From an uncultured Bacilli bacterium (lineage in GTDB: Bacteria; Bacillota_I; Bacilli_A; RF39; UBA660), in NCBI GenBank assembly GCA_944358795.1, contig CALVRW010000011.1:5737-69736 (forward strand): 64,000 nt of DNA, in the 5' to 3' direction. The position numbers were made by a program, and so were the translations under genes. Positions 1 to 46,015 of the stretch are shown one piece after another. The notes under the pieces are model-generated. The model ran no database searches and was not told the DNA's origin. It saw nothing but the letters and a program-made list of their open reading frames with translations. The number at the start of each line of letters is the position of its first letter. The stretch's first letter is position 1.

Positions 1-786
1 CTAGATGAAGATGGAAGTTTAACAAATTATTTATATCATCATCAAGATCAACTAGAACAGTTAACTTCTAAAGAAGAGTATGAATTTTATAAAACAGTTG
101 TCAATCAAAAACCATTTATCTTCTTATTTGGAAATGAAGAATTAAAAGAAAGTGAAGCGTTTTTTCAAAAATATTTTGCTAAATACTCTGATATTGAAGT
201 TGATGTTGAAAGGGAAAATCATTATTTAACATTACACAATCAGGTACAAGAGATAGAGGAGACAAAGCCATATCATGAATCACTGTTATTTTTAATTTAT
301 AAAGTGGAGAATATGAAAGAGGAAGATGAAAAGTATTTAATGTTGATAAAAGATTTGTTAACTTATAAATCAACTAATTTATTACATAAAAAATTACGTA
401 CGGAAAAGAAACTTGTATATCATACTAGTTGTATTCTAGAAGTAAAACATGGAAGTCTTGCTATTGTAGGTGGAATTCATCGGGATAATAAAGAAGAAAT
501 GATGGATGCAGTAAATGAATTATTTGAATCTTTTTGTGACGAAGATAAAATCAAGGAATTATTACCAAATTTACATGAAGAGTATGAATGTGATTTGATA
601 CGAAATTTAGATAGTAAATCTTATATGAGAAATGAATTTTTAGATAAGTATTTTAATATTGCGAAAACGGATAAAGAAATTATCGAAGAATTAAAAACAA
701 TTACGGCTTTAGAATTAAAAGAATTTATGAAAAGACTAAAATTAGACTATATTTATTTTCTAAGAGGTGAAGAAGATGCAAGATAA
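1..786 (+). CDS. C-terminal part of an M16 (insulinase/pitrilysin) family peptidase-like protein; 5' end lies outside the window
   Basis: Frame 1 is open from base 1 to the TAA at 784-786. It is coupled to the next M16 gene by an 11-nt overlap. The domain assignment is inferred from that pairing and from sequence composition. Confidence 0.55.
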   Translation, partial: LDEDGSLTNYLYHHQDQLEQLTSKEEYEFYKTVVNQKPFIFLFGNEELKESEAFFQKYFAKYSDIEVDVERENHYLTLHNQVQEIEETKPYHESLLFLIYKVENMKEEDEKYLMLIKDLLTYKSTNLLHKKLRTEKKLVYHTSCILEVKHGSLAIVGGIHRDNKEEMMDAVNELFESFCDEDKIKELLPNLHEEYECDLIRNLDSKSYMRNEFLDKYFNIAKTDKEIIEELKTITALELKEFMKRLKLDYIYFLRGEEDAR

Positions 787-2023
787 TATAAAAAATTACA
801 CATTAGAAAATGGATTACAAGTTTATTTTTTGAAAGATTCTAAAAAACATAATGTAGAAGTCAATTTGGTTGTTAAATTTGGTGGTTTAGATAAAGATTT
901 TTTAATCGATGGAAAAGAAGTTCGTTTTTGTGATGGAATGGCACATTTATTAGAACATTATACCCTTGAAGCAAGCGAGTATGGCTTATTAATGCAACAG
1001 TTTAATAAGCGTTATATGTATTCTAATGGATATACCAATAAATTTAGAACACTATATTTTTTTAATGCTGTTAAATATGTGGATGAAGGACTAGAACTAT
1101 TGATTAAAGGAATTCATAAGCCTGATTTTACGAATGAACGTTTAGATTTTATTAAAAATGCGATTCGCGAAGAAATTAGAATGACTCGTGATTCTCGAAG
1201 TCGTCGATTATTAGAATTAATAGTATCACAATTATTTAGAAAACTTTCATATCGTAGTGTAATTGGAACAATTTCTGAAATTGATGCGATTACCCTTGAT
1301 GAAGTAAAGAAAGCATTTAAGGCACTTTATATTCCGAAAAATGAAATGATATTTGTATCTGGTAATTTTAATGAAGAGGAAATGTTAGATAAAATAAAAA
1401 AATTATATTGTGAGCTAGAATTTGAAACTCATGATGTAAAACGCATTTCTATCGATGAGCCGAAAGAAGTAAGTAAACAAAAAGAAAAACTTGTTTTTCC
1501 AGTAGCAGAGCCTATTTATCAATTAACATTTAAACTTGATGTTGGAAAGTTAAGTAATGAAGATCAAGCAAGATTGTTTTTCTATCTAGATATATTTTTG
1601 GATGCTAATTTTAGTAAATTGTCTAAAATATATTCTCAATTAAAAGAAGAAAATGTTATAAAAAGAGGAATTGATACTGATAACATTATGTTTCATCGTT
1701 ATTGGTTGATTTCAATAGGCGCATTTACGGAGAAAAAAGATAGATTGAAAGAAGTTGTTTTAGATCGAATAAAACATCCTATTTTTAATAAAGATGATTA
1801 TGATTTATTATTAAATGAAATCAAAATGAAGGCTGTATTAAGAGAAGAACACCTAAGTAGTGTCATGGATAATTTGATCAATAATATAACACTCTTGGAT
1901 TATTATCATTTAGATGATATTGAATTTTTAGATAAATTAACGTTTGAAGAGTATCAATCATTTATAAATGCTCTTGATTTTAGTCAATATATTGAAACAG
2001 AAGTAGTAGACTATGAAAAGTAG
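776..2023 (+). CDS. M16 family zinc metallopeptidase (active subunit type)
   Basis: Inverted zinc-binding motif HxxEH is present as GMAHLLEHYTLEAS. The RBS aagaggtga sits before the ATG at 776; the ORF track starts at GTG 767, which lies inside that RBS. The start overlaps the upstream M16-like ORF. Confidence 0.8.
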   Translation: MQDNIKNYTLENGLQVYFLKDSKKHNVEVNLVVKFGGLDKDFLIDGKEVRFCDGMAHLLEHYTLEASEYGLLMQQFNKRYMYSNGYTNKFRTLYFFNAVKYVDEGLELLIKGIHKPDFTNERLDFIKNAIREEIRMTRDSRSRRLLELIVSQLFRKLSYRSVIGTISEIDAITLDEVKKAFKALYIPKNEMIFVSGNFNEEEMLDKIKKLYCELEFETHDVKRISIDEPKEVSKQKEKLVFPVAEPIYQLTFKLDVGKLSNEDQARLFFYLDIFLDANFSKLSKIYSQLKEENVIKRGIDTDNIMFHRYWLISIGAFTEKKDRLKEVVLDRIKHPIFNKDDYDLLLNEIKMKAVLREEHLSSVMDNLINNITLLDYYHLDDIEFLDKLTFEEYQSFINALDFSQYIETEVVDYEK

Positions 2024-2109
2024 TTTACTTCTTTTTTCTTTTATTAAGGCAAATACCATATGCATAAATGTACCTGGGTCATAAGATACATTAGATAAGG
2101 AAGGGAGAG

Positions 2110-2265
2110 ATGATGATGTTTGCAAGACGTAGAGGTTGCTGTAATCCTGGAATGGGGTATGCAATGAATCAAGGTCAATGTGGATGTATGCCACAACCAA
2201 TTGTTGAACCTGCTATTAATAAATGTGTTGAGAGAGAATTCTGTCATGAAGTACAACAAGTGTGA
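2110..2265 (+). CDS. Small (51 aa) Cys-rich peptide, MMMFARRRGCCNPGMGYAMNQGQCGCMPQPIVEPAINKCVEREFCHEVQQV
   Basis: A strong RBS GGAAGGGAG lies immediately upstream of three consecutive ATGs (2110, 2113, 2116), and the frame is clean to the TGA at 2263-2265. The ORF is absent from the ORF track because it is under 60 aa. The minus-strand ORFs that overlap it are probably spurious. Confidence 0.45.
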   Translation: MMMFARRRGCCNPGMGYAMNQGQCGCMPQPIVEPAINKCVEREFCHEVQQV

Positions 2266-2365
2266 TATTTTATGATAGACCAAAATATTTAAGGGATAAA
2301 TCAAGTTAAAGGCATTTTGATAAGAAATATCTTTTTGTGTGGTATACTATATATAGGTGATATTA

Positions 2366-3211
2366 ATGAAGATGAATGATTATATCAATATAGTTAAAAA
2401 AAATATTAAGAATGATAATTCGCAAATAATAATGATAAATCAGATTAAGCGATATTTTGATTATAAAGATAGACATATAGATTTAAAAAAATATGAAATA
2501 GGAGATGAGGTTTTTCTAAATAAAGGAACATTACTCCATGGAACATATAAAAATTTAGATGGGTTAAAAGAAATTGTAAATAATGGTTTAATTTCAAGTT
2601 GGTTCATAGATGGAAGATTATCTAAATATCCTAGTTCAGTTGGGGTATGGAATCTAAAACATGATTATAAATTATCTGAATATATTAATTTTTATTCTGG
2701 AGGAACGATATTTTATGCTGGTATATTTGAAAATGGAGTAGATACTCAGAAAAATAAGACTGCCATTATTCCGTATGATGAAATGAATAATATTATAGAT
2801 ATAACAACAAGTGTTAACTGTCATATGTGGACTTTAGAACAAACAAAAGAAGCAAGATTTATGCCTAGTTTAGTTCAAAATAATGTACAAATTGGCATTA
2901 TATTTAATGGACAAAATGATGAAGTAAGAGAATTGTTAAAAGGTGACATTTTATCTAATTCTATTAATGATGAAGATGTAAAAGAATTTGTTAATTCAAA
3001 TTATTATGAGAAATTTATAAGAGACAGAAAAAATAAAGATGATTTTTTTACGGATAGAGAAAGCGCAATTTTGTTTGGATTACCATCCAACTTGATAGAA
3101 GGTATATTAGTCGGTAGAAAATATGAAAAAGATAATCAGATTTTAAAAGAGATAAAATCGTTATTACCAGATTGTTATATATGTAACTTAGATGGTATTG
3201 TGATAGCTTAA
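2366..3211 (+). CDS. Hypothetical protein (about 281 aa); ends 13 nt upstream of the Fic gene
   Basis: Long ORF with RBS aggtga before the ATG at 2366 (the ORF track starts at GTG 2357). I recognised no motif. Confidence 0.5.
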   Translation: MKMNDYINIVKKNIKNDNSQIIMINQIKRYFDYKDRHIDLKKYEIGDEVFLNKGTLLHGTYKNLDGLKEIVNNGLISSWFIDGRLSKYPSSVGVWNLKHDYKLSEYINFYSGGTIFYAGIFENGVDTQKNKTAIIPYDEMNNIIDITTSVNCHMWTLEQTKEARFMPSLVQNNVQIGIIFNGQNDEVRELLKGDILSNSINDEDVKEFVNSNYYEKFIRDRKNKDDFFTDRESAILFGLPSNLIEGILVGRKYEKDNQILKEIKSLLPDCYICNLDGIVIA

Positions 3212-3224
3212 AGGAGTTTTAACT

Positions 3225-3974
3225 ATGGATATAAAAAAAATTAAAAACGAATTAATTAAACAAAAGGAATCAAAATTTAAAGGTAATATCTATCATTATT
3301 CACAGGTTAACTTTTCTTTTAATTCAAATAAGATTGAAGGGAGTAGATTAACTAGTGAACAAACAGAAGCGATATTTGATACATCTTCTTTTATTCCTAA
3401 AAGTGATGATTTAATTAAATTAGATGATTTAACTGAATCCAAAAATCATTTTAAATTATTTGATTATATGTTAGATCATGTAGAAGAATTATTGTCTAAA
3501 AATATGATAATTGAAATGAATAAGATATTAAAAAGAAATACTAGTGATGAAGAAAATCCTAGATATAATGTAGGTGGTTTTAAAGTTGTTCCTAATATAA
3601 TAGGATTAGTTAATGTTATCAATACAACTGCACCTGAAGATGTAGAACGAGAAATAGAAGAATTATTAAATGAATATAATTCTAAAACTAATATTACTTT
3701 AGAAGATATCGTTGACTTTCATTTTAGATTTGAAAGAATTCATCCTTTTGGAGATGGAAATGGTCGTGTTGGTAGAATGATTATGTTTAAAGAATGTTTA
3801 AGAAATAACATTATGCCATTTATTGTATTAGATGATGATAAACCTTATTATATGAGAGGTTTAAAGGAATATGAGAATGATAAAATGTTCTTAATTGATA
3901 CGATAAAGCACGAACAAGATTTGTATGAAGAAATGTGTAAAGAATTATTAAATTTTGATATAAAAGAAAAATAA
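3225..3974 (+). CDS. Fic/Doc family protein (probable AMPylator or phosphotransferase)
   Basis: Canonical Fic active-site motif HPFGDGNGRVGR (HPFx[DE]GNGRxxR). Confidence 0.85.
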   Translation: MDIKKIKNELIKQKESKFKGNIYHYSQVNFSFNSNKIEGSRLTSEQTEAIFDTSSFIPKSDDLIKLDDLTESKNHFKLFDYMLDHVEELLSKNMIIEMNKILKRNTSDEENPRYNVGGFKVVPNIIGLVNVINTTAPEDVEREIEELLNEYNSKTNITLEDIVDFHFRFERIHPFGDGNGRVGRMIMFKECLRNNIMPFIVLDDDKPYYMRGLKEYENDKMFLIDTIKHEQDLYEEMCKELLNFDIKEK

Positions 3975-4273
3975 TAAAGAACTAAACATCCTATAGAACT
4001 GTATTATTACAATTGGGATGTTTTTGTATACTTTGAATTGATAAAAGAAGTAATACTAAAATGAATCTTTTATCCATAAATTTAAGTGAGGTGTTTCAAG
4101 TTTATGGATAAATATAAGATTCATTATATATTTCATGAGAAGAACGATATGAATGATATTTTTATTAATGTGTTAAATAAGGAGTTAAAAAAGTTTATTT
4201 TATCAAATTGTAAAGACAAAAAAAGGAAAGATTCATCATCCAATCATTGTCTTACTTTAGAAAGAGGAAACAA

Positions 4274-5842
4274 TTGATTTATAACGTTAATCAAATATAT
4301 AGTGCGGGACTTTATATTAGACTATCAAGAGAAGATGATGATAAGATTTTAGAAAGTGAGAGTATAACGAATCAAAAGAGGTTATTACTTCAGTATGTGA
4401 AAGAAAATCATTTAACTGTTTATGATATATATGTTGATGATGGATATTCTGGGACAAATTTTGACCGACCAGATTTTAATCGATTACTCAGTGATATTGA
4501 ATTAGGTAAAGTGAATATGGTTATTACCAAAGATATGTCAAGATTAGGAAGAGATTATATTGGTACAGGAAATTTAATAGAAAAGTATTTTCCAGAACAC
4601 AATGTTAGATATATAGCAGTTACTGATAATATCGATACATTTTTAGATAGTTCTAATAATGATATCGCCCCATTTAAAGCAATAATGAATGATATGTACG
4701 CGAAAGATATTTCAAAAAAGATTAAATCTAGTTTACGTGCAAAGCAAAAAGAAGGAAAGTGGGTAAGTGGAAGATGCCCTTTTGGATATATGCAAGATCC
4801 TAGTGATAAGAATCACTTAGTAATCAATGAAGAGCAAGCATTCGTAGTGAAAAGAATTTATCATATGTGTTTGGATGGATTATCCTGTTTTAAAATAGCA
4901 AAACAATTAACGAATGAAGGAGTAAAAACTCCAGCACAATATTATAATTTTGAGTGGAAAAGTCATTATAATTTAAATTATGGAATATGGAATTCTAAAA
5001 CAATCAGAGATATATTAACGAATCAAATGTACATCGGAAATTTGGTTCAAAATAAAAGAAATAAAGTGAATTATAAAGTGAAGAAAATTGTTACCAATAA
5101 TCCTGAAAATTATATTGTTGTAGAAAATACCCATGAACCAATTATTGACAAAGATACTTTTTATGAAGTACAAAAAAGAATTCCTAAAAATGTAGGAAGA
5201 AACGAGAAAAAAGAAAATCATTTGTTAGATGGAATTTTATATTGTGGGGATTGTGGACATAGGATTGGAGTAACTTCTAGGAGAAAAAAGGATAACAGAT
5301 GTTATACGATTTGTAATTATTATAGAACTTATATGAAACAAAAGGTATGTACAACTCATTCGAATAATTATGACGAATTAGAAAAAGTAATTCTTAGTTC
5401 TTTAACTAATGTGTGTTTAAATTATATTAATGAAGATAAAATTAAAAATAATGTATTAAATAATTTAATTGAAGATAACAAAATTAATAACAAAAAAGAG
5501 TTAGAAATACTTACCAATGATATTAAACAAATAAATGATAATTTAGATATTATTTATATTGATAAATTAAATAAAAAAATAACTGAAGAACAATTTGGAA
5601 GAGTAAAAGTAAAATTAGAGCGGGAATTACATATAAAACAAAAAAGATATGATGATTTAAATAATGATATTAATAATACTGTCAATGAAGAATCTAAAAA
5701 TAAAATGATTCATGAGTACACTAAAAAATTTCTATCTATGAAAAAGCCTAGTAGGGAATTAATAATTAATTTAATTGATAAGATAGAAATATTTGAAGAT
5801 AAGACTATCAATATTAAGGTTTGTTTTAATAATTTTCATTAG
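4274..5842 (+). CDS. Large serine recombinase (resolvase/invertase N-domain plus recombinase and zinc-ribbon C-domain)
   Basis: N-terminal catalytic region GLYIRLSREDDD resembles the large serine recombinase YxRxSxxxQ/D motif. A Cys-rich stretch CGDCGHRIG...CYTICNYY and a coiled-coil tail are present. RBS aaagagga sits before the TTG at 4274; the ORF track uses TTG 4247, so the start is uncertain. Confidence 0.85.
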   Translation: MIYNVNQIYSAGLYIRLSREDDDKILESESITNQKRLLLQYVKENHLTVYDIYVDDGYSGTNFDRPDFNRLLSDIELGKVNMVITKDMSRLGRDYIGTGNLIEKYFPEHNVRYIAVTDNIDTFLDSSNNDIAPFKAIMNDMYAKDISKKIKSSLRAKQKEGKWVSGRCPFGYMQDPSDKNHLVINEEQAFVVKRIYHMCLDGLSCFKIAKQLTNEGVKTPAQYYNFEWKSHYNLNYGIWNSKTIRDILTNQMYIGNLVQNKRNKVNYKVKKIVTNNPENYIVVENTHEPIIDKDTFYEVQKRIPKNVGRNEKKENHLLDGILYCGDCGHRIGVTSRRKKDNRCYTICNYYRTYMKQKVCTTHSNNYDELEKVILSSLTNVCLNYINEDKIKNNVLNNLIEDNKINNKKELEILTNDIKQINDNLDIIYIDKLNKKITEEQFGRVKVKLERELHIKQKRYDDLNNDINNTVNEESKNKMIHEYTKKFLSMKKPSRELIINLIDKIEIFEDKTINIKVCFNNFH

Positions 5843-5877
5843 GATTATGATATAATAGTGTATTAAGAGGTGGTAGT

Positions 5878-7455
5878 ATGAGTATTTTAACAAGTGCAAG
5901 TAGTTCCTCTGTTAGCAGAGGTTATGATTATTATAAAAAAAATAAAGTTCGTAATGTAAAGCAATTAAATGATCATGAATTTGAAGGATATGTTGATGGA
6001 AGTTTAAAAAATCCTTATTATGTAAAAATAGATATAGCACATCCGAGAAAATCCTATTGTGATTGTCCTCATGCAAACGGAAATATTACTTGTAAACATA
6101 TGACTGCATTATATTTTGAACTATTTCCTGAAGAAGTGGAAGATTATGAATCATGGTTAAATAGTGATTATGATGAAGACGAAGAAGATGATTACTACGA
6201 ATATGATCGATATTATGACGATTATGATTATAGAGAATCTTCTAATTTTGAAAAACCATTATTTTTTGATGTAGTATTAGAAAAATACGTTAATGATTTG
6301 AGTATAGAAGAGTTAAAACAAACATTGTTAACAGAACTTAAAAGTAATGAAAAAATAACGTTTGAATTATATTTAGAAAAGAATTATAAAAAATATTTAC
6401 AAAATAATAGTGACGAGTTTGCGTTTTTAGATAAATTGAATAAAAAGGTACAAGATTTAACAGAATACTATAATTATGACTATAATGATTTTAATAAAGA
6501 AATATTAAATGTCAGACAAAAAAGAAAAATAGAAGAGTTATACAAAAACAAATCATTACAATTACAAATAGATAAAATATTATTAAACGAGAAATTAGCT
6601 GTATATACAGATTATAAGTGGATTGCCAAGTTTTATAAGAAAAATAAAAATAATGAAGAAATATATGAATTTTGTAATGTATTAAAAAACTATTTAGATA
6701 GTTTAAAACATTATAGTATAAAAAACACAGTTCCAAAATCAAATGTCTTAATCACAATACATTTATTAAATGATTTTAGTATAACAGAGTGTGCAAATCT
6801 GATGTTGAAAAACGCGAAATATTTACAATATATTGATTATATTGTTGAAAATAGTAATGATGTTTTAAATTTGTATAAATCATTTATGAAATTAATTGAA
6901 AAGAATTATTTTAAGAATAAAATGTATATTCCAAATGTACTATATAGATTTGTTATGGTTACTGATTTTGAAAATAATGATATAAATAAAAATTATTATT
7001 TGTATAGTTATTTATGTTTAGGTCATGTTGAATATTTAGATATTTTGGGATATTATTTAACAGCAGACGAAATTATTAAGATAGTAGAAAATAAAACTAA
7101 AGACATTTTCTTGCTTGTTAAACTTTATAAATTTTATGACAAAAAAGAAAAGTTATGGAATTTATTAATTGATAGTAATTATAAATATCTATTGTTAGAT
7201 AATATAGAAATATTAAAAGGAAAATACAATGATGCGTTATATAATCATTTTATAGATGAATTTTATAATATTTTAAAAGATGGTAAGAACAGGGAGACTT
7301 ATCATAAAGCATCGAAATATATAAGTGCAATTTCAAAATTAAATAATGGTAATGATCTAATAGAAAAAATAGTAATAGATTTAAAAAACTCAGATTATCA
7401 GAAATGTTCAGCATTATTTGATGAAATCAATAAGTCTATTAGCAATAATAGTTAA
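5878..7455 (+). CDS. SWIM zinc-finger domain protein with an acidic D/E/Y-rich stretch
   Basis: CxCxnCxH pattern CDCPHANGNITCKHMTALYFE is typical of SWIM fingers. It is followed by the acidic run DYDEDEEDDYYEYDRYYDDYDYRE. RBS aagaggtgg. Confidence 0.55.
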   Translation: MSILTSASSSSVSRGYDYYKKNKVRNVKQLNDHEFEGYVDGSLKNPYYVKIDIAHPRKSYCDCPHANGNITCKHMTALYFELFPEEVEDYESWLNSDYDEDEEDDYYEYDRYYDDYDYRESSNFEKPLFFDVVLEKYVNDLSIEELKQTLLTELKSNEKITFELYLEKNYKKYLQNNSDEFAFLDKLNKKVQDLTEYYNYDYNDFNKEILNVRQKRKIEELYKNKSLQLQIDKILLNEKLAVYTDYKWIAKFYKKNKNNEEIYEFCNVLKNYLDSLKHYSIKNTVPKSNVLITIHLLNDFSITECANLMLKNAKYLQYIDYIVENSNDVLNLYKSFMKLIEKNYFKNKMYIPNVLYRFVMVTDFENNDINKNYYLYSYLCLGHVEYLDILGYYLTADEIIKIVENKTKDIFLLVKLYKFYDKKEKLWNLLIDSNYKYLLLDNIEILKGKYNDALYNHFIDEFYNILKDGKNRETYHKASKYISAISKLNNGNDLIEKIVIDLKNSDYQKCSALFDEINKSISNNS

Positions 7456-7544
7456 TTAAATTTTAACAATTGGATACAATAATAATTAAAAAATAATTGA
7501 CAAATGTATAAACATTGTATATACTTAAAGTGGGTGGAGATGAT

Positions 7545-7808
7545 ATGATGGAAGCAAGACTTCAAAAATGGGGAAATTCAGACGGAATAAGAATTCCTAG
7601 TAGTTTTTTAAAATCACTTAATTTAAAAACAAATGATGTCGTCGAATTAATACAAAAAGAAGATTCTATTATTATTTCAAAACCTAAAAAAAAGCATTTA
7701 TCATTAGAAGAAAGAATTGAAATGTATGAACAATTACCAGATAATGAAAAAGGAACAGTAGAATCATATGATTGGGGAGAAGATATAGGAAAGGAAAAAT
7801 TTTATTAA
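7545..7808 (+). CDS. mazE: MazE/AbrB-fold antitoxin
   Basis: MMEARLQKWGNSDGIRIPSSFLKSLNL matches the SpoVT/AbrB swapped-hairpin antitoxin signature. Its stop overlaps the toxin start in a TAATG junction. Confidence 0.7.
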   Translation: MMEARLQKWGNSDGIRIPSSFLKSLNLKTNDVVELIQKEDSIIISKPKKKHLSLEERIEMYEQLPDNEKGTVESYDWGEDIGKEKFY

Positions 7809-8140
7809 TGTATATACCAAAACAAGGAGATATATGTTATATGGATTTTGCACCAACAAAAGGTCATGAACAAGCTGGAGTAAGACCTGCTATCGTAATT
7901 AGTAAAGATTACTATAATAAATATACGAATATGGCAATTATTTGCCCAATTACAACAAATACAAAAAAGTTCCCTACTCATTATGAAATTAAAAACACAA
8001 AAAGAGTGAAAGGTTCTGTTTTATGTGAACATATTAGAAGTATAGATTTTAATGTTCAAAAATTATCATTTATTGAAAAAATAAAAGAAGAAGAGTTAGA
8101 AGAAATAATAGATATAGTAAATGGGATAATAGAAATTTAG
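7808..8140 (+). CDS. mazF: MazF/PemK family endoribonuclease toxin
   Basis: MYIPKQGDICYMDFAPTKGHEQAGVRPAIVIS is characteristic of PemK/MazF. The ATG overlaps the mazE stop. Confidence 0.8.
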   Translation: MYIPKQGDICYMDFAPTKGHEQAGVRPAIVISKDYYNKYTNMAIICPITTNTKKFPTHYEIKNTKRVKGSVLCEHIRSIDFNVQKLSFIEKIKEEELEEIIDIVNGIIEI

Positions 8141-8305
8141 TATATCAAAAAAGGCCACACACATATTTGCCCAATCCATACACATGTAATAAATCGTCAT
8201 ATCTATAATCATACGTATACACCACAATTTAGTTGTTCAGAAGAAAATCAAGTTGTGAATAATGACCCAGGTTGTAGTGGTGGATTTATGAATCAAAATT
8301 TCTAA
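8141..8305 (+). pseudogene. Start-less His/Cys-rich reading frame (…GHTHICPIHTHVINRHIYNHTYTPQFSCSEENQVVNNDPGCSGGFMNQNF*), candidate remnant of a small spore-coat-like peptide gene
   Basis: The frame is open from the base after the mazF TAG to the TAA at 8303-8305. It contains no in-frame ATG and only a late GTG. It shares the NPG…MNQ segment with the 2110..2265 peptide. Confidence 0.3.
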
Positions 8306-8336: not shown

Positions 8337-8374
8337 GAGTATATGATAATATAGAATTGAAAGTAGGCGTTTTA

Positions 8375-8773
8375 ATGAAAGTATTGACAATCAAAGAACC
8401 ATGGGCATCTTTAATTATTGATGGGTATAAAGAATATGAATTTCGTAGTTGGAAAACATCTTATCGGGGAAAAATATTAATTCATGCTGGTATGAGTTTA
8501 GAACAAGATATGCTAAAACGATTTCAAGATTATCATTTAAATTGTCAAAAGGGAGCGATTATTGGAGAAGCAGAGTTGACAGATTGTATTTTAGTTGATG
8601 ATGAATTTAATGAAGCATTACAAAAGATTGATCCGATTGTATATGGGAGAAGTAATCATACAGAAACATATGCATGGAAATTAGAACATGTAAAAAAATA
8701 TAAAAATCCAATTTCAATAAAAGGAAAATTAGGATTATGGAATTATGAAGGAGAGAAAGAAGATGACCTATAA
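8375..8773 (+). CDS. ASCH domain protein
   Basis: LTIKEPWASLIIDGYKEYEFRSW resembles the ASC-1 homology (PUA-like) fold signature. The ORF track starts at TTG 8357. Confidence 0.5.
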   Translation: MKVLTIKEPWASLIIDGYKEYEFRSWKTSYRGKILIHAGMSLEQDMLKRFQDYHLNCQKGAIIGEAELTDCILVDDEFNEALQKIDPIVYGRSNHTETYAWKLEHVKKYKNPISIKGKLGLWNYEGEKEDDL

Positions 8774-9050
8774 GATGCGATTACAAAAAGAACCATTTGA
8801 ACAAATTAAATTGGGTAAGAAAACAATTGAATTACGATTATATGATGAAAAAAGAAAGCAAATTAAAGTTGGAGATATAATTGAATTTACGAATAGAGAT
8901 ACAAATGAAATAATTTATACAACTGTGATCGCATTACATCGATATGATAGTTTCAAAGAATTGTATCAACATTTTGATAAAATTTTATTAGGATACAATG
9001 AATCAGAAACACCTCATTATCAAGATATGGAATTATATTATTCGCCATAG
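8763..9050 (+). CDS. Small ASCH/PUA-like domain protein
   Basis: MRLQKEPFEQIKLGKKTIELRLYDEKRK…VGDIIEF has an ASCH-like arrangement. RBS aaggagag sits before the ATG at 8763. Confidence 0.45.
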   Translation: MTYKMRLQKEPFEQIKLGKKTIELRLYDEKRKQIKVGDIIEFTNRDTNEIIYTTVIALHRYDSFKELYQHFDKILLGYNESETPHYQDMELYYSP

Positions 9051-9846: not shown

Positions 9847-12192
9847 TTAATTTTCTGTTCGTTTATCTATTCTTTTATAGAAGAAAGTTGAAAAGATTCC
9901 AAATAAGATAACGGTTATTACAGATAAAATAGATAATATGATAAACATTTCAAAACTAATAATTGTTAAACTATAGAAGTTTTGCATAAAGATGACTTGT
10001 AATAAAAATAGGACAATCATACTAATGAAGAGTGTTATTTTTAAAGGATTGAATGGTAAACATAAATAATAAAGTAGGATAAATCCTGTAATTGCATTCA
10101 TCATAACACATAGTGTAGACGTGACTGTGTCATTGAATTGAAATAAGTGAGAGCAAGCCATGATGGCTAAAATATTTAGTACAACTAAGATTGCAGTTGG
10201 TAAAGATTTACTTAATACATTTTTAAAGAAATTACCTTGGATACGATTTTTATTTGGTTGAATTGCAAGAATAAAAGAAGGAATTCCAATGGTAACTACA
10301 CTGGTTAATGTTAATTGTATTGGCATAAATGGATAATTCATTTGTAAAAATATAAATAGAATTGCCAAAATAGTAGAGTAGGATGTTTTAGTTAAAAATA
10401 GGGTAGCTGACTGTTCAATATTATTTACAGTTCTTCTTCCTTCATCGACAATTTTAGGCATGGCAGAAAAGTTAGAATTTAGTAATACTAATTCTGCGAT
10501 ATTTTTCGCAGCATCACTTCCATTTGGCATAGCAATACTACAATGTGCTTCTTTTAAAGCAAGTACATCATTGACTCCATCTCCTGTCATGGCGACATAA
10601 TGTTTATGTTCTTTCATGGCACGAATTAAATCTCTTTTTTGAGTAGGTGTTACACGTCCAAATATTGTATATTTTTCACTTGCTTCTTTGATTTCTTCTT
10701 CTGTGTGTAAAGTACTCATATCAATATAATTTTCATAGTCTTCAATTCCAGCTCTTTTGGCAATACCAGCAACTGTTTTTACATTATCTCCAGAAATAAC
10801 TTTAATTTGAACTCCTTGTTTTTTGAAATATTGTAACGTTTCTTTCGCATCATTTCTAATTTTATCTTGGATATATAATAATCCATATAATTCTAAGTCT
10901 TCAGGAATTTCTTTTTCTTTGATTTCTTTTTTTGTATGAGCAAGTACTAAAATACGGTATTCTAATAAATCATTTTGTATCATGTTTTCTAATTTTTGAT
11001 ATTGATGTTTTAGTAGTATTTCAGGTGCTCCTAAATAAAAGGTTCCTTTTTTTTCAAAGGTACATGCTGAAAATTTAATGTCTGAAGAAAAGGGGATTTT
11101 TTTTGTACAATTCCAATTGGATGGAGTATGATACTGTTCTTTGATTGCTAAAATAGTTGCATTACTATCGTCAATGTGTTGGCAAAAGGCATTCATAACT
11201 TCGTCAATTTCTTCTTTTTGATGTTTTTCTAAAGGAATTGTTTTTTTAAATTCCATTTTTCCTTCGGTAATTGTTCCAGTTTTATCAAGACATAAGGTAT
11301 CAATACGAGCAAGTGTTTCGATGCAATATAAGTCTTTTACTAATACTTTATATTTTGATAAACGAATGACACTAACAGCTAAAACAGTACTAGTAAGAAG
11401 GACAAGTCCTTCAGGAATCATGCCTAAAACACCAGCTACTGTATTTACTACGGCAGTCTGTATGTTATTATCAGGAATTTGTAATTGATTAAAAAATAAG
11501 ATGGTACCGATTGGGATAATTGCAATCGAAATCCATTTGATAATTTTATTTAGTGATTGCATTAAAATAGAACTAGTAGGTTTATGATATTTTGCTTCAC
11601 ATGATATTTTAGCAGTATAATTATCCATTCCAATATGTTCTACTTTTGCTCTTACTTTACCACTTACTAAGAAACTACCAGATCGTAGCATCTTACCAGC
11701 ATCTTTATATTCTGTATCAGATTCTCCAGTAATAAACGATTCATCTACTTCACAACTACCTTCCATGATAATCGCATCCGTTACAATTTGTTCTCCTGGT
11801 TTTATTTCTAATACATCATCTAAAACAATTTCATCAATGGCAATCTCTTTTTCTTTTCCATCACGAATTGCGTGGACTTTACTAGCCGAAATAATGGATA
11901 GGGCATCAATTTCTTTTTTTGCTCGAATTTCTTGGATAATACTAATAATGGTATTACAAAATACAACTCCTAAAAATAATAAATTTTTATAAGATTGGAC
12001 GAGAATAATTAAGATTGCAAGTCCAAAGTTAAGTAAATTAAACAATGTGAAAATATTTGAAAAAATAATTTGCTTAATTGTTTTTGTTGGAACAGAAGTA
12101 TCATAGTTTACTAAATTATCATGAATTCTTTGTTCTACTTGTTCACTTGATAATCCAAAAGTAGAACTAGGTTGATATCGTACTTCTTTCAT
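9847..12192 (-). CDS. Cation-transporting P-type ATPase (type II, PEGL-containing)
   Basis: Phosphorylation motif DKTGTIT, hinge motif GDGVNDVLALKEAHCSIAMP and a PEGL motif are present, along with multiple TM segments. The start is taken at MKEVRYQ because the RBS aaggtg precedes it; the ORF track extends to 12255. Confidence 0.9.
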   Translation of the reverse strand: MKEVRYQPSSTFGLSSEQVEQRIHDNLVNYDTSVPTKTIKQIIFSNIFTLFNLLNFGLAILIILVQSYKNLLFLGVVFCNTIISIIQEIRAKKEIDALSIISASKVHAIRDGKEKEIAIDEIVLDDVLEIKPGEQIVTDAIIMEGSCEVDESFITGESDTEYKDAGKMLRSGSFLVSGKVRAKVEHIGMDNYTAKISCEAKYHKPTSSILMQSLNKIIKWISIAIIPIGTILFFNQLQIPDNNIQTAVVNTVAGVLGMIPEGLVLLTSTVLAVSVIRLSKYKVLVKDLYCIETLARIDTLCLDKTGTITEGKMEFKKTIPLEKHQKEEIDEVMNAFCQHIDDSNATILAIKEQYHTPSNWNCTKKIPFSSDIKFSACTFEKKGTFYLGAPEILLKHQYQKLENMIQNDLLEYRILVLAHTKKEIKEKEIPEDLELYGLLYIQDKIRNDAKETLQYFKKQGVQIKVISGDNVKTVAGIAKRAGIEDYENYIDMSTLHTEEEIKEASEKYTIFGRVTPTQKRDLIRAMKEHKHYVAMTGDGVNDVLALKEAHCSIAMPNGSDAAKNIAELVLLNSNFSAMPKIVDEGRRTVNNIEQSATLFLTKTSYSTILAILFIFLQMNYPFMPIQLTLTSVVTIGIPSFILAIQPNKNRIQGNFFKNVLSKSLPTAILVVLNILAIMACSHLFQFNDTVTSTLCVMMNAITGFILLYYLCLPFNPLKITLFISMIVLFLLQVIFMQNFYSLTIISFEMFIILSILSVITVILFGIFSTFFYKRIDKRTEN

Positions 12193-25437: not shown

Positions 25438-25523
<86 letters not shown>

Positions 25524-42225: not shown

Positions 42226-42684
42226 ATGGATAAGTTTAATCGAACACTTCGTGGTTATGATCCAATTGAAGTCAATAACTTTTTAGATAAAGTTATTAAG
42301 CAAGTGGAAATAATGGTTGGGGAATTAAACGAAAAAGATGAAAAGATTGCTCGTTTAGAGGCTTATGAAAAAGAAAATGAAATGTTAAAACAAAAATTAG
42401 AACAATATCGTAGAACAGAAGAAACGATGAATCGGGCAATTATGATGGCACAAAAAACATCAGATCAGATGAAAGTAGCTGCTCATCATGAATGCGAAGT
42501 TATTATTAATGATGCGAAACGTAATGCGAATCGTATTATCAATGAAGCCCTTTTAAAAGCTGAAAAAACAGAGCAAGAAGCAAATATGTTAAGACGTAAT
42601 ATTAGTATTTTTAAACGTCGATTAAGAAGTATCATCGAAGCACAACTAGAAATGGTTGATGAAATTGACCATGTAGAATTATAA
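42226..42684 (+). CDS. divIVA: DivIVA domain protein
   Basis: N-terminus FNRTLRGYDPIEVNNFLDKV plus a coiled coil. Confidence 0.85.
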   Translation: MDKFNRTLRGYDPIEVNNFLDKVIKQVEIMVGELNEKDEKIARLEAYEKENEMLKQKLEQYRRTEETMNRAIMMAQKTSDQMKVAAHHECEVIINDAKRNANRIINEALLKAEKTEQEANMLRRNISIFKRRLRSIIEAQLEMVDEIDHVEL

Positions 42685-42699
42685 AACAATCGAGAAAGA

Positions 42700-42895
42700 C
42701 GGTATATAACTAGAGTGATAGAAAGTTCGTGGTTGATGGAAACGAATACGAAGGTTATATATAGATCACTTTTGATGTGACTAATGAAGGTTAGTCCGGG
42801 TAACGCCGTTATCGTATTAAGTGTATAAACTCATTATAAAATAAGGTGGTACCGCGGGGAAACTCGTCCTTATAATAAATGAGTTTTTTTGTTAT
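42700..42895 (+). promoter_or_regulatory. T-box riboswitch leader (tRNA-sensing antiterminator) of ileS
   Basis: Conserved T-box sequence aaggtggtaccgcgg at about 42844-42858. It is followed by the terminator hairpin aaactcatt…aatgagttt and a T-run immediately upstream of the ileS RBS. Confidence 0.75.
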
Positions 42896-42916: not shown

Positions 42917-45900
42917 ATGGGACAATTTAAAGAATTAAGTAAAGAAAAAGTAAGTGTAGTAGAAAGTAAGATTTTAAAAGAATGGAAAGAGAAAGATATT
43001 TTAAATTTAACGATTGAAAATAGAAAAGGAAAAGAAGATTTTGTTTTCTATGATGGTCCAATTTATGCGAATGCGAAACCTGGAATTCATCATGTTTTTG
43101 CGAAAACAATTAAAGATGCTTTCTGTAAGTATAAAACGATGCGTGGGTACCGTGTTTTAAGAAAGATTGGATTAGATACACATGGACTTCCAATCGAAGT
43201 AAATGTTGAAAAAAAATTGGGATTTAAATCAAAAACTGATATTGAAGAATTTGGAATTGAAAAATTTTGTGAAGAATGTAAAAGCGAGACAGATAGTAAT
43301 ATTGATGAAGTAAAAAAAGTAACGGATATGATGGGACAATTTATTGATTGTGATCATCCATATGTTACTTGTAGTAATGAATATATTGAATCTGAATGGT
43401 GGATTGTAAATGAATTAAATAAAAAAGGACTACTTTACCATGGAAATAAAGTATTACCATATTGTCCTAGATGTGGTACGGAACTTGCAAGCCATGAAGT
43501 ATCACAAGGATACAAAGAAGTTAGTGTTAATACGGTTATTGTACCATTTAAATTAGTAGATAAAGATGAATATTTCTTAGTATGGACTACAACACCATGG
43601 ACTTTAATGGCCAATGTTGCAGTATGTGTAAACCCTGATTTAGAATATGTAAAAGTAGAGTCTCGTGGATATAAATTTATTTTATGTTCTAGTTTATTAC
43701 AACAAGTATTAGGGGATGACTATGAAATATTAGAAACATATAAGGGAACTGACTTAGTTGGAATGAAATATGAACAATTTATGCCATTTGTTAAAGTAGA
43801 AGGAAAAGCTTTTGAAGTAATTGCTGATACATATGTTACAGATAGTGATGGTACAGGTATTGTTCATATCGCACCTGCTTATGGGGCAGATGACAACCGT
43901 ATTTGTGTTGCGAATGGAATTGCTTTTGTGAATCCAGTAGGAACAGATGGATGTTATAAAGAAGGACCATGGAAAGGAACGTTAGTAACGGATCCAGAAT
44001 TAGAACTTGATATTATTAAATGGTTAAAAGAGAATGATAAATTATTTAAAAAACAAAAGATGACGCATGATTATCCACATTGTTGGAGATGTAAACAACC
44101 ACTTATTTATTTTGCAAAACCAGCATGGTATGTAAGAAATACTGCATATAAAGAAGAAATTATTAAAGCAAATGAAACAGTAAACTGGTATCCAGATTAT
44201 ATTGGAAAGAAGAGATTTGCTAACTGGTTAGAAAATATGATTGATTGGGGTATTTCAAGAAATCGTTATTGGGGTTGTCCACTTCCAATTTGGACTTGTG
44301 ATTGTGGTCATTTTGAAACAATTGGTTCTGTTGCTGAATTAAAAGAAAAAGCAGTTGAAAAAGTAGAGGATAATTTAGAACTTCATCGTCCATATGTTGA
44401 TCAAATTCATCTTACTTGTCCACATTGTGGAAAAAAGATGAGTCGTGTAAGTGATGTAATGGATGTATGGTTTGATTCAGGAGCGATGCCATATGCACAA
44501 TTCCATTATCCATTTGAAAATAAAGAATTATTTGAATCACAATTTCCAGCTGATTTTATTGCAGAAGGGGTAGACCAAACAAGAGGTTGGTTCTATGTAT
44601 TAATAGTTCTTTCTACTTTAATTAGTGGAAAATCTAGTTTCAAAAATGTTGTAGTAAACGATATGATGTTAGATGCTAATGGAAAGAAAATGAGTAAATC
44701 AACAGGAAATATTATTAATCCAATTGAGATTATGGAACAATATGGAGCTGATACAGTTCGATTCTATATGTTATATGCATCTCCAATTTGGACTCCATTA
44801 AAATTTGATGTAGAAGGATTAAAAGAAGTATATTCTAAATTCTTTAATACTTTAAAAAATACTTATAATTTCTTTGCTCTTTATGCGAATACTGATCAAG
44901 TAGATCCAAGAGAATTTGAAGTTGATTATCAAGATAGAACATTAATTGATAAATGGTTGCTTTCTAAATATCATCAATTATTAAAAGATGTGACAAGTTA
45001 TTATGAAGAATATGATTTAACAAAAGTAGTACGTAGTATTACAAACTTTGTAAATGAAGATTTATCAAATTGGTATATTAGAAGAAATCGTAGAAGATTC
45101 TGGGCAAGTGAATTAGATCTTGATAAAAAAGCGGTTTATAAAACAACTTATGAAGTATTGGTAGGACTTTGTGAAATGATTGCTCCAATTGTACCTTATC
45201 TTTCAGAAGAAATGTATCAAGCATTAACAGGAAAAGAATCTGTTCATTTAGCAGACTTCCCAACTTATGATGAAAAGTTGATTGATAAAGCAATTGAAGA
45301 AAAAATGGATTTAGTTCGTGACTTAATTAGTTTAGGAAGAAATGCCAGAGAAGAAGCAAAAATTAAAGTTCGTCAACCAATTAGTAAAGTAATTATTGAT
45401 GGTAAGAATAAGGAAATTATTGGAGACCTTACAGATTTAATTTTAGAAGAATTAAATGTAAAAGAAGTTGTTTATGAGGAAAACTTAAGTAACTTCATGA
45501 ACTTTATTGTTCTTCCTAATTACAAAGTAGCGGGTCCAATCTTTGGTTCTAATATTAAAGCATATGCAAAAGCATTAACAGAACTTTCTTTAGAACAAAT
45601 TATGAGTCTACAAAGCGAGGAAAATATTGATATTTTAGTAGATGATGTAGAATACAATATTTCTAGTGATATGGTAGTAATTCGTATTTCTTCAAAAGAA
45701 GGATTTAATGCACAAATGGAACACAATCACTTCATTATTTTAGATACAGAATTAACAGATGATTTAATTTATGAAGGAATTGCTCGTGAACTTGTTTCTA
45801 AAGTACAAAATTTAAGAAAGAATAAAGATTTTGAAGTAGCAGATCGTATCTTGTTATATTATAATGGAGACGAAGAGTTTGAAAAAGCGCTTACTAAATT

Positions 45901-46015
45901 TAAAGAATTTGTACAAAATGAAACATTAGCTTTAAATATTACAAAGAAAGAGAATCTAGAAGTAGCTTATGATTTAAATGGACATGAAGTATATCTTGAT
46001 GTTGAAAGAGTATAG
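42917..46015 (+). CDS. ileS: Isoleucyl-tRNA synthetase (type 2-like)
   Basis: HIGH-region variant PGIHHVFAKTIKD…YKTMRG and KMSKS as KKMSKSTGN. 1032 aa with no C-terminal zinc finger of type 1. Confidence 0.9.
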   Translation: MGQFKELSKEKVSVVESKILKEWKEKDILNLTIENRKGKEDFVFYDGPIYANAKPGIHHVFAKTIKDAFCKYKTMRGYRVLRKIGLDTHGLPIEVNVEKKLGFKSKTDIEEFGIEKFCEECKSETDSNIDEVKKVTDMMGQFIDCDHPYVTCSNEYIESEWWIVNELNKKGLLYHGNKVLPYCPRCGTELASHEVSQGYKEVSVNTVIVPFKLVDKDEYFLVWTTTPWTLMANVAVCVNPDLEYVKVESRGYKFILCSSLLQQVLGDDYEILETYKGTDLVGMKYEQFMPFVKVEGKAFEVIADTYVTDSDGTGIVHIAPAYGADDNRICVANGIAFVNPVGTDGCYKEGPWKGTLVTDPELELDIIKWLKENDKLFKKQKMTHDYPHCWRCKQPLIYFAKPAWYVRNTAYKEEIIKANETVNWYPDYIGKKRFANWLENMIDWGISRNRYWGCPLPIWTCDCGHFETIGSVAELKEKAVEKVEDNLELHRPYVDQIHLTCPHCGKKMSRVSDVMDVWFDSGAMPYAQFHYPFENKELFESQFPADFIAEGVDQTRGWFYVLIVLSTLISGKSSFKNVVVNDMMLDANGKKMSKSTGNIINPIEIMEQYGADTVRFYMLYASPIWTPLKFDVEGLKEVYSKFFNTLKNTYNFFALYANTDQVDPREFEVDYQDRTLIDKWLLSKYHQLLKDVTSYYEEYDLTKVVRSITNFVNEDLSNWYIRRNRRRFWASELDLDKKAVYKTTYEVLVGLCEMIAPIVPYLSEEMYQALTGKESVHLADFPTYDEKLIDKAIEEKMDLVRDLISLGRNAREEAKIKVRQPISKVIIDGKNKEIIGDLTDLILEELNVKEVVYEENLSNFMNFIVLPNYKVAGPIFGSNIKAYAKALTELSLEQIMSLQSEENIDILVDDVEYNISSDMVVIRISSKEGFNAQMEHNHFIILDTELTDDLIYEGIARELVSKVQNLRKNKDFEVADRILLYYNGDEEFEKALTKFKEFVQNETLALNITKKENLEVAYDLNGHEVYLDVERV

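Follow-up and report, generated by a model that had tools for sequence, protein, structure and literature searches.

A CotD-family spore coat gene split by a small serine-recombinase element in an uncultured Bacilli bacterium, and its possible excision during sporulation

A stretch of 64,000 nucleotides from an uncultured Bacilli bacterium (GenBank assembly GCA_944358795.1, contig CALVRW010000011.1, positions 5,737 to 69,736 of the forward strand; hereafter the window, in whose coordinates positions are given) contains an open reading frame (ORF) of 51 aa at 2110..2265 (+). Judging from its intact relatives, this ORF is almost certainly the 5′ fragment of a gene of the spore coat protein family CotD, split between codons 49 and 50 by an element that encodes a large serine recombinase (LSR). 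The insert, called here the cotD-intervening element, spans 2259..8163 (+), which is 5,905 bp when one copy of its CA core is counted. The split, the in-frame restoration of the gene on removal of the insert, the recombinase, the architecture of the attachment (att) sites and the recurrence of insertion at one codon are all shown by the comparisons described below. Taken as a whole, the observations are probably best explained by an intervening element of the skin, SPbeta and gin kind.

The 51-aa ORF is far from a chance ORF, since residues 1-49 share 83% identity with the N-terminal half of intact proteins of 94 aa. A purine-rich ribosome-binding site (RBS), aaggaagggagag, directly abuts ATGATGATG, the N-terminus is basic (FARRR), and the third ATG (2116) is the likely true start (homologues begin MF..). 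The ORF, RBS, run of ATG codons and basic N-terminus are present as a preliminary description of this DNA had reported them, although six Cys residues are found rather than the seven reported, and the gap to an upstream pair of M16 peptidase genes, put at 90 bp, measures 86 nt from the M16 stop codon (2023). Nor is the ORF strictly unannotated, as public gene callers give a product of 50-51 aa on several assemblies. The 51-aa sequence alone matched no Pfam or NCBIfam family. Its C-terminal stretch, PIVEPAINKCVEREFCHEV, resembles the start of the CotD coat-protein motif, and the remainder of the gene was therefore sought downstream. The 5′ segment (2110..2258, +) comprises codons 1-49 and the CA of codon 50, and the 3′ segment (8162..8305, +) comprises codons 50-96 (47 codons; HICPIHTHVINRHIYNHTYTPQFSCSEENQVVNNDPGCSGGFMNQNF), with the stop at 8303-8305. 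This second segment is an open frame directly past the mazF stop, has neither a start codon nor an RBS of its own, and is left uncalled as a gene in public records.

When the joined sequence was used as query, 192 intact homologues of about 78-102 aa were returned. The best of them covers 98% of the query at 86% identity; PF11122 is carried by many, and CotD family spore coat protein is the name given to several. Against the Pfam family Spore-coat_CotD (PF11122), for which the curated threshold is 22 bits, the joined 94-aa protein scores 25.5 bits, and 34 of 34 aligned homologues match the family too, while the 3′ half alone scores 19.5 bits. Alignment with these homologues places the break exactly between ..EFCHEVQ and HICPIHTH... 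A join with two extra residues (..EVQHTHICP..) scores 22.0 bits, but that junction is ruled out by the alignment with intact homologues. The contig of the best homologue (L001) supplies the corresponding empty site. Its gene order, M16-cotD-ASCH-VanY-P-type ATPase-VanY-VanY-DUF2179-PBP5, is that of the window minus 2259-8163, and its DNA at the junction is gaagtacaACAtatttgtcc. In the window, the left junction reads gaagtacaaCA followed by agtgtgatatt, and the right junction ggccacacaCA followed by tatttgccc. With the 5,905 bp removed, the window is colinear with L001 across the junction at 86.8% identity (88.8% further downstream). The colinearity of both cotD fragments as one gene was also checked in relatives and held. 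From the junction comparison with L001, the last two codons of the 51-aa ORF (Q and V) and its stop (2263-2265) belong to the insert. A small spore-coat component, the fallback of the preliminary description, was thus right as to family, but the ORF, which it treated as complete, is just the 5′ half of the gene, cut by the mobile element from base 2259. Upstream of cotD lies the box CATAAGATA (2080..2088, +), which fits CATA-N3-TA, the sigma-K -10 pattern of B. subtilis; a CATAnnnT(A) box is found 21-33 nt before the cotD start codon in 35 of 42 loci.

Insertion at this codon recurs in a family of elements. A scan of one genome per species gave 557 relatives of the LSR, and the best 80 loci were fetched, nearly all of them from uncultured gut metagenome-assembled genomes labelled Bacilli, Tenericutes or Erysipelotrichaceae. 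At about 60 of the 80, the C-terminal half of cotD starts exactly at His50, just downstream of the LSR, and, where the flank reaches, the N-terminal half stops at codon 48/49 upstream. The orientation of the element is always that of cotD. On the element side the junctions are conserved (left, CA-AGTGTGATAATTTATGATAGAC; right, GTCTATCAAAAAAGGGCAAGGA-CA), and of 45 attL/attR pairs, 41 have CA as their common core. For the window, an attP/attB consensus, joined for attL by an alignment of about 50 junctions, delimits attL at 2231..2286 (+; host arm, central CA at 2257-2258, element arm AGTGTGATATTTTATGATAGACC) and attR at 8136..8191 (+; element arm GTATATCAAAAAAGGCCACACA, central CA at 8162-8163, host arm); the predicted attB is GAAGTACAACATATTTGCCC and the predicted attP AAAGGCCACACACAAGTGTGATATTT. 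The arms of the reconstructed attP are mirror-symmetric at -21..-11 and -6/-5, those of attB are not, and the architecture as reconstructed is typical of serine-integrase (LSR) sites. The aligned loci show that the family integrates specifically within the cotD motif, between ..HEV(P/Q) and H(V/I)CPIHT.., via the LSR and at a CA dinucleotide. Cleanly delimited elements measure about 2.8-8.1 kb, and in all 41 the flanking halves, once joined, give an open CotD frame of 82-150 aa. For the C-terminal half of cotD, dN/dS is ~0.33, with synonymous sites near saturation.

Across the family, the LSR is found in 44 of 44 elements, a small ORF upstream of it in 39 and a Fic gene in 33. The LSR of the window (4274..5842, +) has 522 aa from TTG 4274, a length shared by the public call (the mechanical ORF runs from 4247), and carries the domains Resolvase, Recombinase and Zn_ribbon_recom with the catalytic-serine motif YIRLS. 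In PHROGs it is matched to an integrase (E = 3e-111). The lowest E value among solved structures (5e-27) belongs to TnpX of Tn4451, over the catalytic domain only, and SprA of SPbeta is the closest over near-full length (E = 2e-25, residues 12-500).

The small ORF (57 aa; 4104..4277, +) is a candidate recombination directionality factor. Its TGA overlaps the TTG of the LSR by 4 nt (TTGA), so that the two are translationally coupled, and it is called independently in public assemblies. It is a genuine gene under purifying selection: its dN/dS is 0.38, its frame stays open at 57 of 66 loci whereas each other frame does so at 1 of 66, and it has 81 homologues, mostly of 57-58 aa. No match was found in PHROGs, PADLOC or PDB. 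The predicted structure has a short N-terminal segment and then a single long helix (residues 12-40); this model is compatible with directionality factors, which are small, mutually unrelated and without a common fold (PMC12286644), but proves nothing. By analogy with skin/sigK, SPbeta/spsM and gin/gerE, the 57-aa product is more likely than not to be such a factor. The ORF is preceded by a promoter-like block at 4045..4093 (+), with the palindrome AGTAATACT at 4049-4057, the box CATAAATTT at 4075-4083 and the RBS AGTGAGGTG at 4085-4093. Over 56 loci the upstream region is conserved as a CATAAGTTT box with palindromic AGTA(A/T)TACT sites, and the 56-locus alignment of this block has no sigma-70-like hexamers. 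The CATA box before the small ORF resembles the CATAnnnTA box before cotD. Conversely, the cargo genes mazEF are preceded by a sigma-70-like near-consensus site, TTGACA-17-TATACT, at 7497-7525. A general scan for sigma-70 promoters was uninformative (66 sites, with 63 expected by chance). In the same 56 loci, one or two copies of the palindrome AGTA(A/T)TACT(AAA) overlap the promoter-like block, and these look like operator-like sites for some regulator.

The elements skin, SPbeta, vfbin and gin are excised during sporulation, and yin is excised in a growth-phase-dependent manner. For the cotD-intervening element, a similar course can be proposed. In the mother cell of a sporulating cell, the coupled small ORF and LSR would be driven by a non-sigma-A promoter whose -10 box is of the CATA type, and the small ORF product would act as the directionality factor of the LSR. 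Together they would recombine attL with attR, and the element would leave as a circle; the in-frame cotD of 94-96 aa would be restored and then expressed from its own sigma-K-type promoter. The chromosome of the forespore would keep the element, which would be inherited at little cost with its Fic/PDC-S04, MazEF and other cargo. That excision is developmentally programmed in this way, and takes place in the mother cell, is the favoured reading by some margin of likelihood, because all described recombinase-bearing elements that split mother-cell sporulation genes are excised in sporulation, and because the small ORF is genuine, is coupled to the LSR and has a relative in front of the LSRs of a sister clade. 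It is favoured further because the CATA box of the small ORF stands without sigma-70 hexamers, unlike the near-consensus site of mazEF, and because gin co-expresses its recombinase and factor and so provides a precedent for co-expression.

Several observations weigh against programmed excision. The exact attP junction pattern had no match in metagenome contigs or in viral contigs; integrated copies of the element do occur in the metagenome collection. In a relaxed motif search of 80 further metagenome loci no right end abutted a left end, and the contigs with an exact MazF held integrated copies only. In PHROGs and PDB the small ORF resembles none of the known directionality factors, and a candidate factor that is always co-translated with the LSR leaves integration into new hosts unexplained. 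The sigma-factor assignment is read from a short motif, with 18 nt between it and a possible -35 AC, which is more than is usual in B. subtilis. For the N-terminal half of cotD, dN/dS is only ~0.7, with synonymous sites near saturation. Recombinase identity and CotD identity show no correlation (Spearman rho = 0.02). With this value and with element copies 99.8% identical, many insertions may be recent, and intact halves therefore argue less for selection. The intact and the interrupted alleles of a sister species were found in separate samples, and the mixture of alleles shows strain polymorphism, not developmental excision.

The mobility of the family is seen most directly in three species (L004, L005 and L038), whose elements are 99.7-99.8% identical over 5.6 kb while their flanks align only in patches at ~72% (also L009/L030). 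This pattern indicates very recent transfer between species of an element with no visible transfer genes. Clustering at 90% identity groups the 51-aa ORF with truncated alleles of 49-51 aa, which end QV, QE or QD, and with intact alleles of 94-96 aa whose N-terminal halves are identical to those of the truncated ones. From these near-identical copies across species and this allele mix, the element is active, site-specifically mobile and polymorphic within species. As a separate observation, all five short public contigs with the exact 51-aa ORF (L168-L172) end 165-420 nt past the truncated ORF, just inside the element, as expected if the element is a repeat common to the genomes of one metagenome that breaks assemblies.

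The same evidence of mobility lends itself to a different explanation, in which the insert is an ordinary site-specific integrative element that uses the cotD motif as its attB, knocks out a dispensable coat gene and excises for transfer only. Near-identical elements across species with no host co-divergence, presence/absence polymorphism within species, the circular junction not found in the metagenome and viral contigs, and a cargo that looks like accessory defence and toxin genes would all be accounted for. This explanation is nevertheless unlikely, though it deserves more weight than the other alternatives. All described LSR elements that split mother-cell sporulation genes proved to be excised in sporulation. 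Moreover, the LSR operon has no sigma-70-type promoter but a cotD-like CATA box, whereas the mazEF cargo is preceded by a near-consensus sigma-70 site. The halves of cotD are open in 41 of 41 elements over very divergent hosts, and the constant orientation of the element with cotD also speaks against this explanation.

Two further explanations leave the 51-aa ORF as a gene in its own right. In the first, the truncated fragment of 49+2 residues would itself be functional, for instance as an alternative coat component while the element is present. The fragment does retain the cotD promoter box and RBS, and the left end of the element always gives a stop within 2-3 codons (CA(A/T) G(T/A)G TGA), which would yield a defined product. 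However, the most conserved part of CotD (HxCPIHTHxxNxHxYxHTYxP) sits in the missing 3′ half, the fragment by itself matches no family, and in the gerE case the 5′ fragment is inactive (PMC5595907). A function for the fragment is therefore very improbable. The second, the proposal of the preliminary description that the ORF encodes a precursor like those of ribosomally synthesized and post-translationally modified peptides (RiPPs), served by the adjoining M16 pair, draws on a Cys-rich ORF with a good RBS 86 nt past that pair, but it is refuted on each defining feature that could be tested and retains next to no probability: the final two residues and the stop derive from the inserted element, and the homologues are CotD proteins of 78-102 aa, so that the supposed precursor is not a complete gene kept as such.

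The surroundings of the M16 pair bear on the same proposal. A tandem pair with one non-catalytic member does lie upstream as described, in that the second gene combines HxxEH (HLLEH) with both M16 Pfam domains, and the first is matched by Peptidase_M16_C (inactive C-domain) alone. Adjacency of M16 and cotD is found, however, only in the three closest relatives (L001, L002 and L053) among 175 fetched loci, and for the M16 protein the best match is to YfmH-type proteins, a group linked to EF-P modification, at a score under the family cut-off. The modification enzymes expected upstream did not appear: on a contig of the same species (L176), the 4.4 kb before the M16 pair hold a HerA-like fragment, a 130-aa gene of no known function and SRP54, and no radical-SAM, YcaO or lanthipeptide enzymes. 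The preliminary description had itself named a match of the peptide to some known structural family as evidence against its reading, and the joined peptide matches CotD (PF11122). As a side observation on this locus, the M16 proteins of the window (767-2023) and of L001 (539-1786) are only 51% identical, whereas the DNA from the end of the gene onward is 87-89% identical; the sharp boundary of similarity just upstream of cotD could reflect gene replacement or recombination. Downstream of the 51-aa ORF come the mobile element and then ASCH and VanY genes. At 8357-9050, the window has two overlapping ASCH-domain genes downstream of cotD, and L001 has one. A Pfam scan of ten further window proteins gave housekeeping genes only, with no sporulation markers nearby.

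Among known systems, gin of B. cereus ATCC 10987 resembles the cotD-intervening element in being non-phage, in splitting a very small mother-cell sporulation gene, and in encoding an LSR together with a tiny protein outside any known family. In gin, expression of both GirC (the LSR) and the 42-aa GirX falls at T3-T5 of sporulation; the two excise the element from gerE, and precise excision restores the gerE reading frame (PMC5595907). The two elements differ in scale and distribution: gin is 28.6 kb with three recombinase genes and is confined to the B. cereus group, whereas the cotD element is 5.9 kb with one recombinase and is found in dozens of uncultured gut species. They also differ in target, a regulator for gin and a structural coat gene for the cotD element, in which the small ORF is translationally coupled to the LSR. 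Excision of gin has been demonstrated, whereas that of the cotD element is proposed from sequence.

SPbeta, which interrupts spsM in B. subtilis and is handled by SprA and SprB, contributes in SprA the closest solved relative of the LSR over near-full length. It likewise interrupts a mother-cell gene of the spore envelope, and its directionality factor is under the control of sporulation sigma factors (PMC4191935, PMC5499854). SPbeta is, however, an active 134-kb phage, whereas the cotD element is without phage genes, and the small ORF showed no similarity to SprB (YotN) in the PDB search. The skin elements in sigK (with SpoIVCA in B. subtilis and CD1231/CD1234 in C. difficile) share with the cotD element the LSR-mediated reconstitution of a mother-cell gene, which is predicted for cotD. 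Skin elements range from 14 to 48 kb. They are prophage-like and interrupt a regulator essential for late sporulation, whereas cotD is structural and probably dispensable. The C. difficile factor CD1234 is small, and its expression is confined to the mother cell (PMC5025042). Prophage-like content is true of most intervening elements but not of gin, and the cotD element is likewise not prophage-like. As for the interrupted gene, CotD of B. subtilis (inner spore coat protein D, PF11122) has the His-rich core motif in common with the joined protein; the joined protein differs in being rich in Cys at either end and in its origin, an uncultured lineage of 28% GC.

The element has a GC content of 23.9%, compared with 28.8% in its flanks. 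No phage or conjugation genes were recognised in it, and in PHROGs only the integrase itself matched a phage function. The variable cargo slot that directly follows the conserved left end is filled by a gene of no known function (2357..3211, +; 284 aa from GTG, with a public call of 281 aa from ATG 2366). In the window at 2290-2370 and in related left ends, a conserved leader runs into differing cargo genes that all start MILMK/MILMN.., which suggests a cargo slot with a common expression signal; elsewhere this slot holds ASCH-like, GNAT-like and other genes. The next gene encodes a Fic-domain protein (3225..3974, +) with an intact HPFGDGNGRVGR active-site motif, which matches the PADLOC defence candidate PDC-S04 (E = 1.4e-99). 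Beyond the small ORF and the LSR lie a 525-aa cargo protein with a weak SWIM zinc-finger match (5878..7455, +; 7 of 44 elements) and the toxin-antitoxin cargo pair mazE (7545-7808) and mazF (7808-8140), which together occupy 7545..8140 (+) and occur in 11 of 44 elements. The variable cargo of the family includes MazEF, SWIM-like, ASCH-like and other genes, and a NERD-like candidate picked out by eye from sequence. Gene calls on the public copy of the window's contig agree with this content.

The sporulation genes known to be interrupted are sigK, spsM, spoVFB, gerE and yabG (PMC10747680), and vrin has also been named as an intervening element (PMC4191935). Almost all known cases come from cultured Bacillus and Clostridium. 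The target of vrin is spoVR. In the searchable literature, no report of cotD as a target was found, nor of cotD together with intervening elements or serine recombinases. New here are the target, a structural coat gene; the element, which is unusually small, non-phage and built on a defined core of Fic, small ORF and LSR; and its wide occurrence in uncultured gut Bacilli. Confirmation of excision would add a structural coat gene to the list of targets and show the phenomenon to be widespread in uncultured gut spore-formers; it would also provide a compact pair of LSR and directionality factor, with att sites of ~50 bp and many natural variants, as a recombinase toolset. For annotation there is a warning as well, in that short Cys-rich "orphan peptides" beside a recombinase-bearing island can be halves of split genes, of which pipelines miss the 3′ half.

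Related LSRs appear to use other targets. In a sister clade (53-57% identity; L073-L082 and L100-L134), the right end is conserved as ..AATGTTACATAAAAATTGTA followed by TC.GG.GAT.. (for instance in L077 and L108, in both near 11565). The host sequence begins at position 5 of a LysM domain, in proteins with 1-5 LysM repeats, and these elements seem to split LysM-domain genes. Despite the different target, the LSR of this clade is also preceded by a related small ORF (MVKYKVNLKF..EVLKIELQKK..). The left ends of the clade were not located with a guessed inverted-repeat motif or by pairwise BLAST, and the conserved block that emerged lay inside the element. In a more distant clade on GC-rich contigs (43-44% identity; L135-L162), the right end is conserved as ..TCGTTTACAATAGGCGTGTCGC and the host sequence that follows encodes YVSRIEKKAL.. 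(for instance L147 near 11560-11620). We take this to resemble the C-terminus of sporulation sigma factor K, which would make the elements of L135-L162 skin-like sigK elements. A radiation of miniature (~3-8 kb) non-phage modules of small ORF and LSR, specialised on genes used only in the mother cell (cotD, a LysM gene and apparently sigK), is a tentative proposal for which the chances fall slightly short of even. Were it true, defence and toxin cargo would be parked free of cost in the germ line and excised only in the doomed mother cell, and would still move between species. Programmed DNA rearrangement would then have in cotD its first known example of a structural spore-coat gene, and the mechanism would be common in uncultured gut Bacilli, beyond a few model strains.

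Elsewhere in the window, and unrelated to the element, a T-box leader (42681-42874) precedes a 1032-aa ORF (42917-46015), and a tRNA gene lies at 25438-25520.

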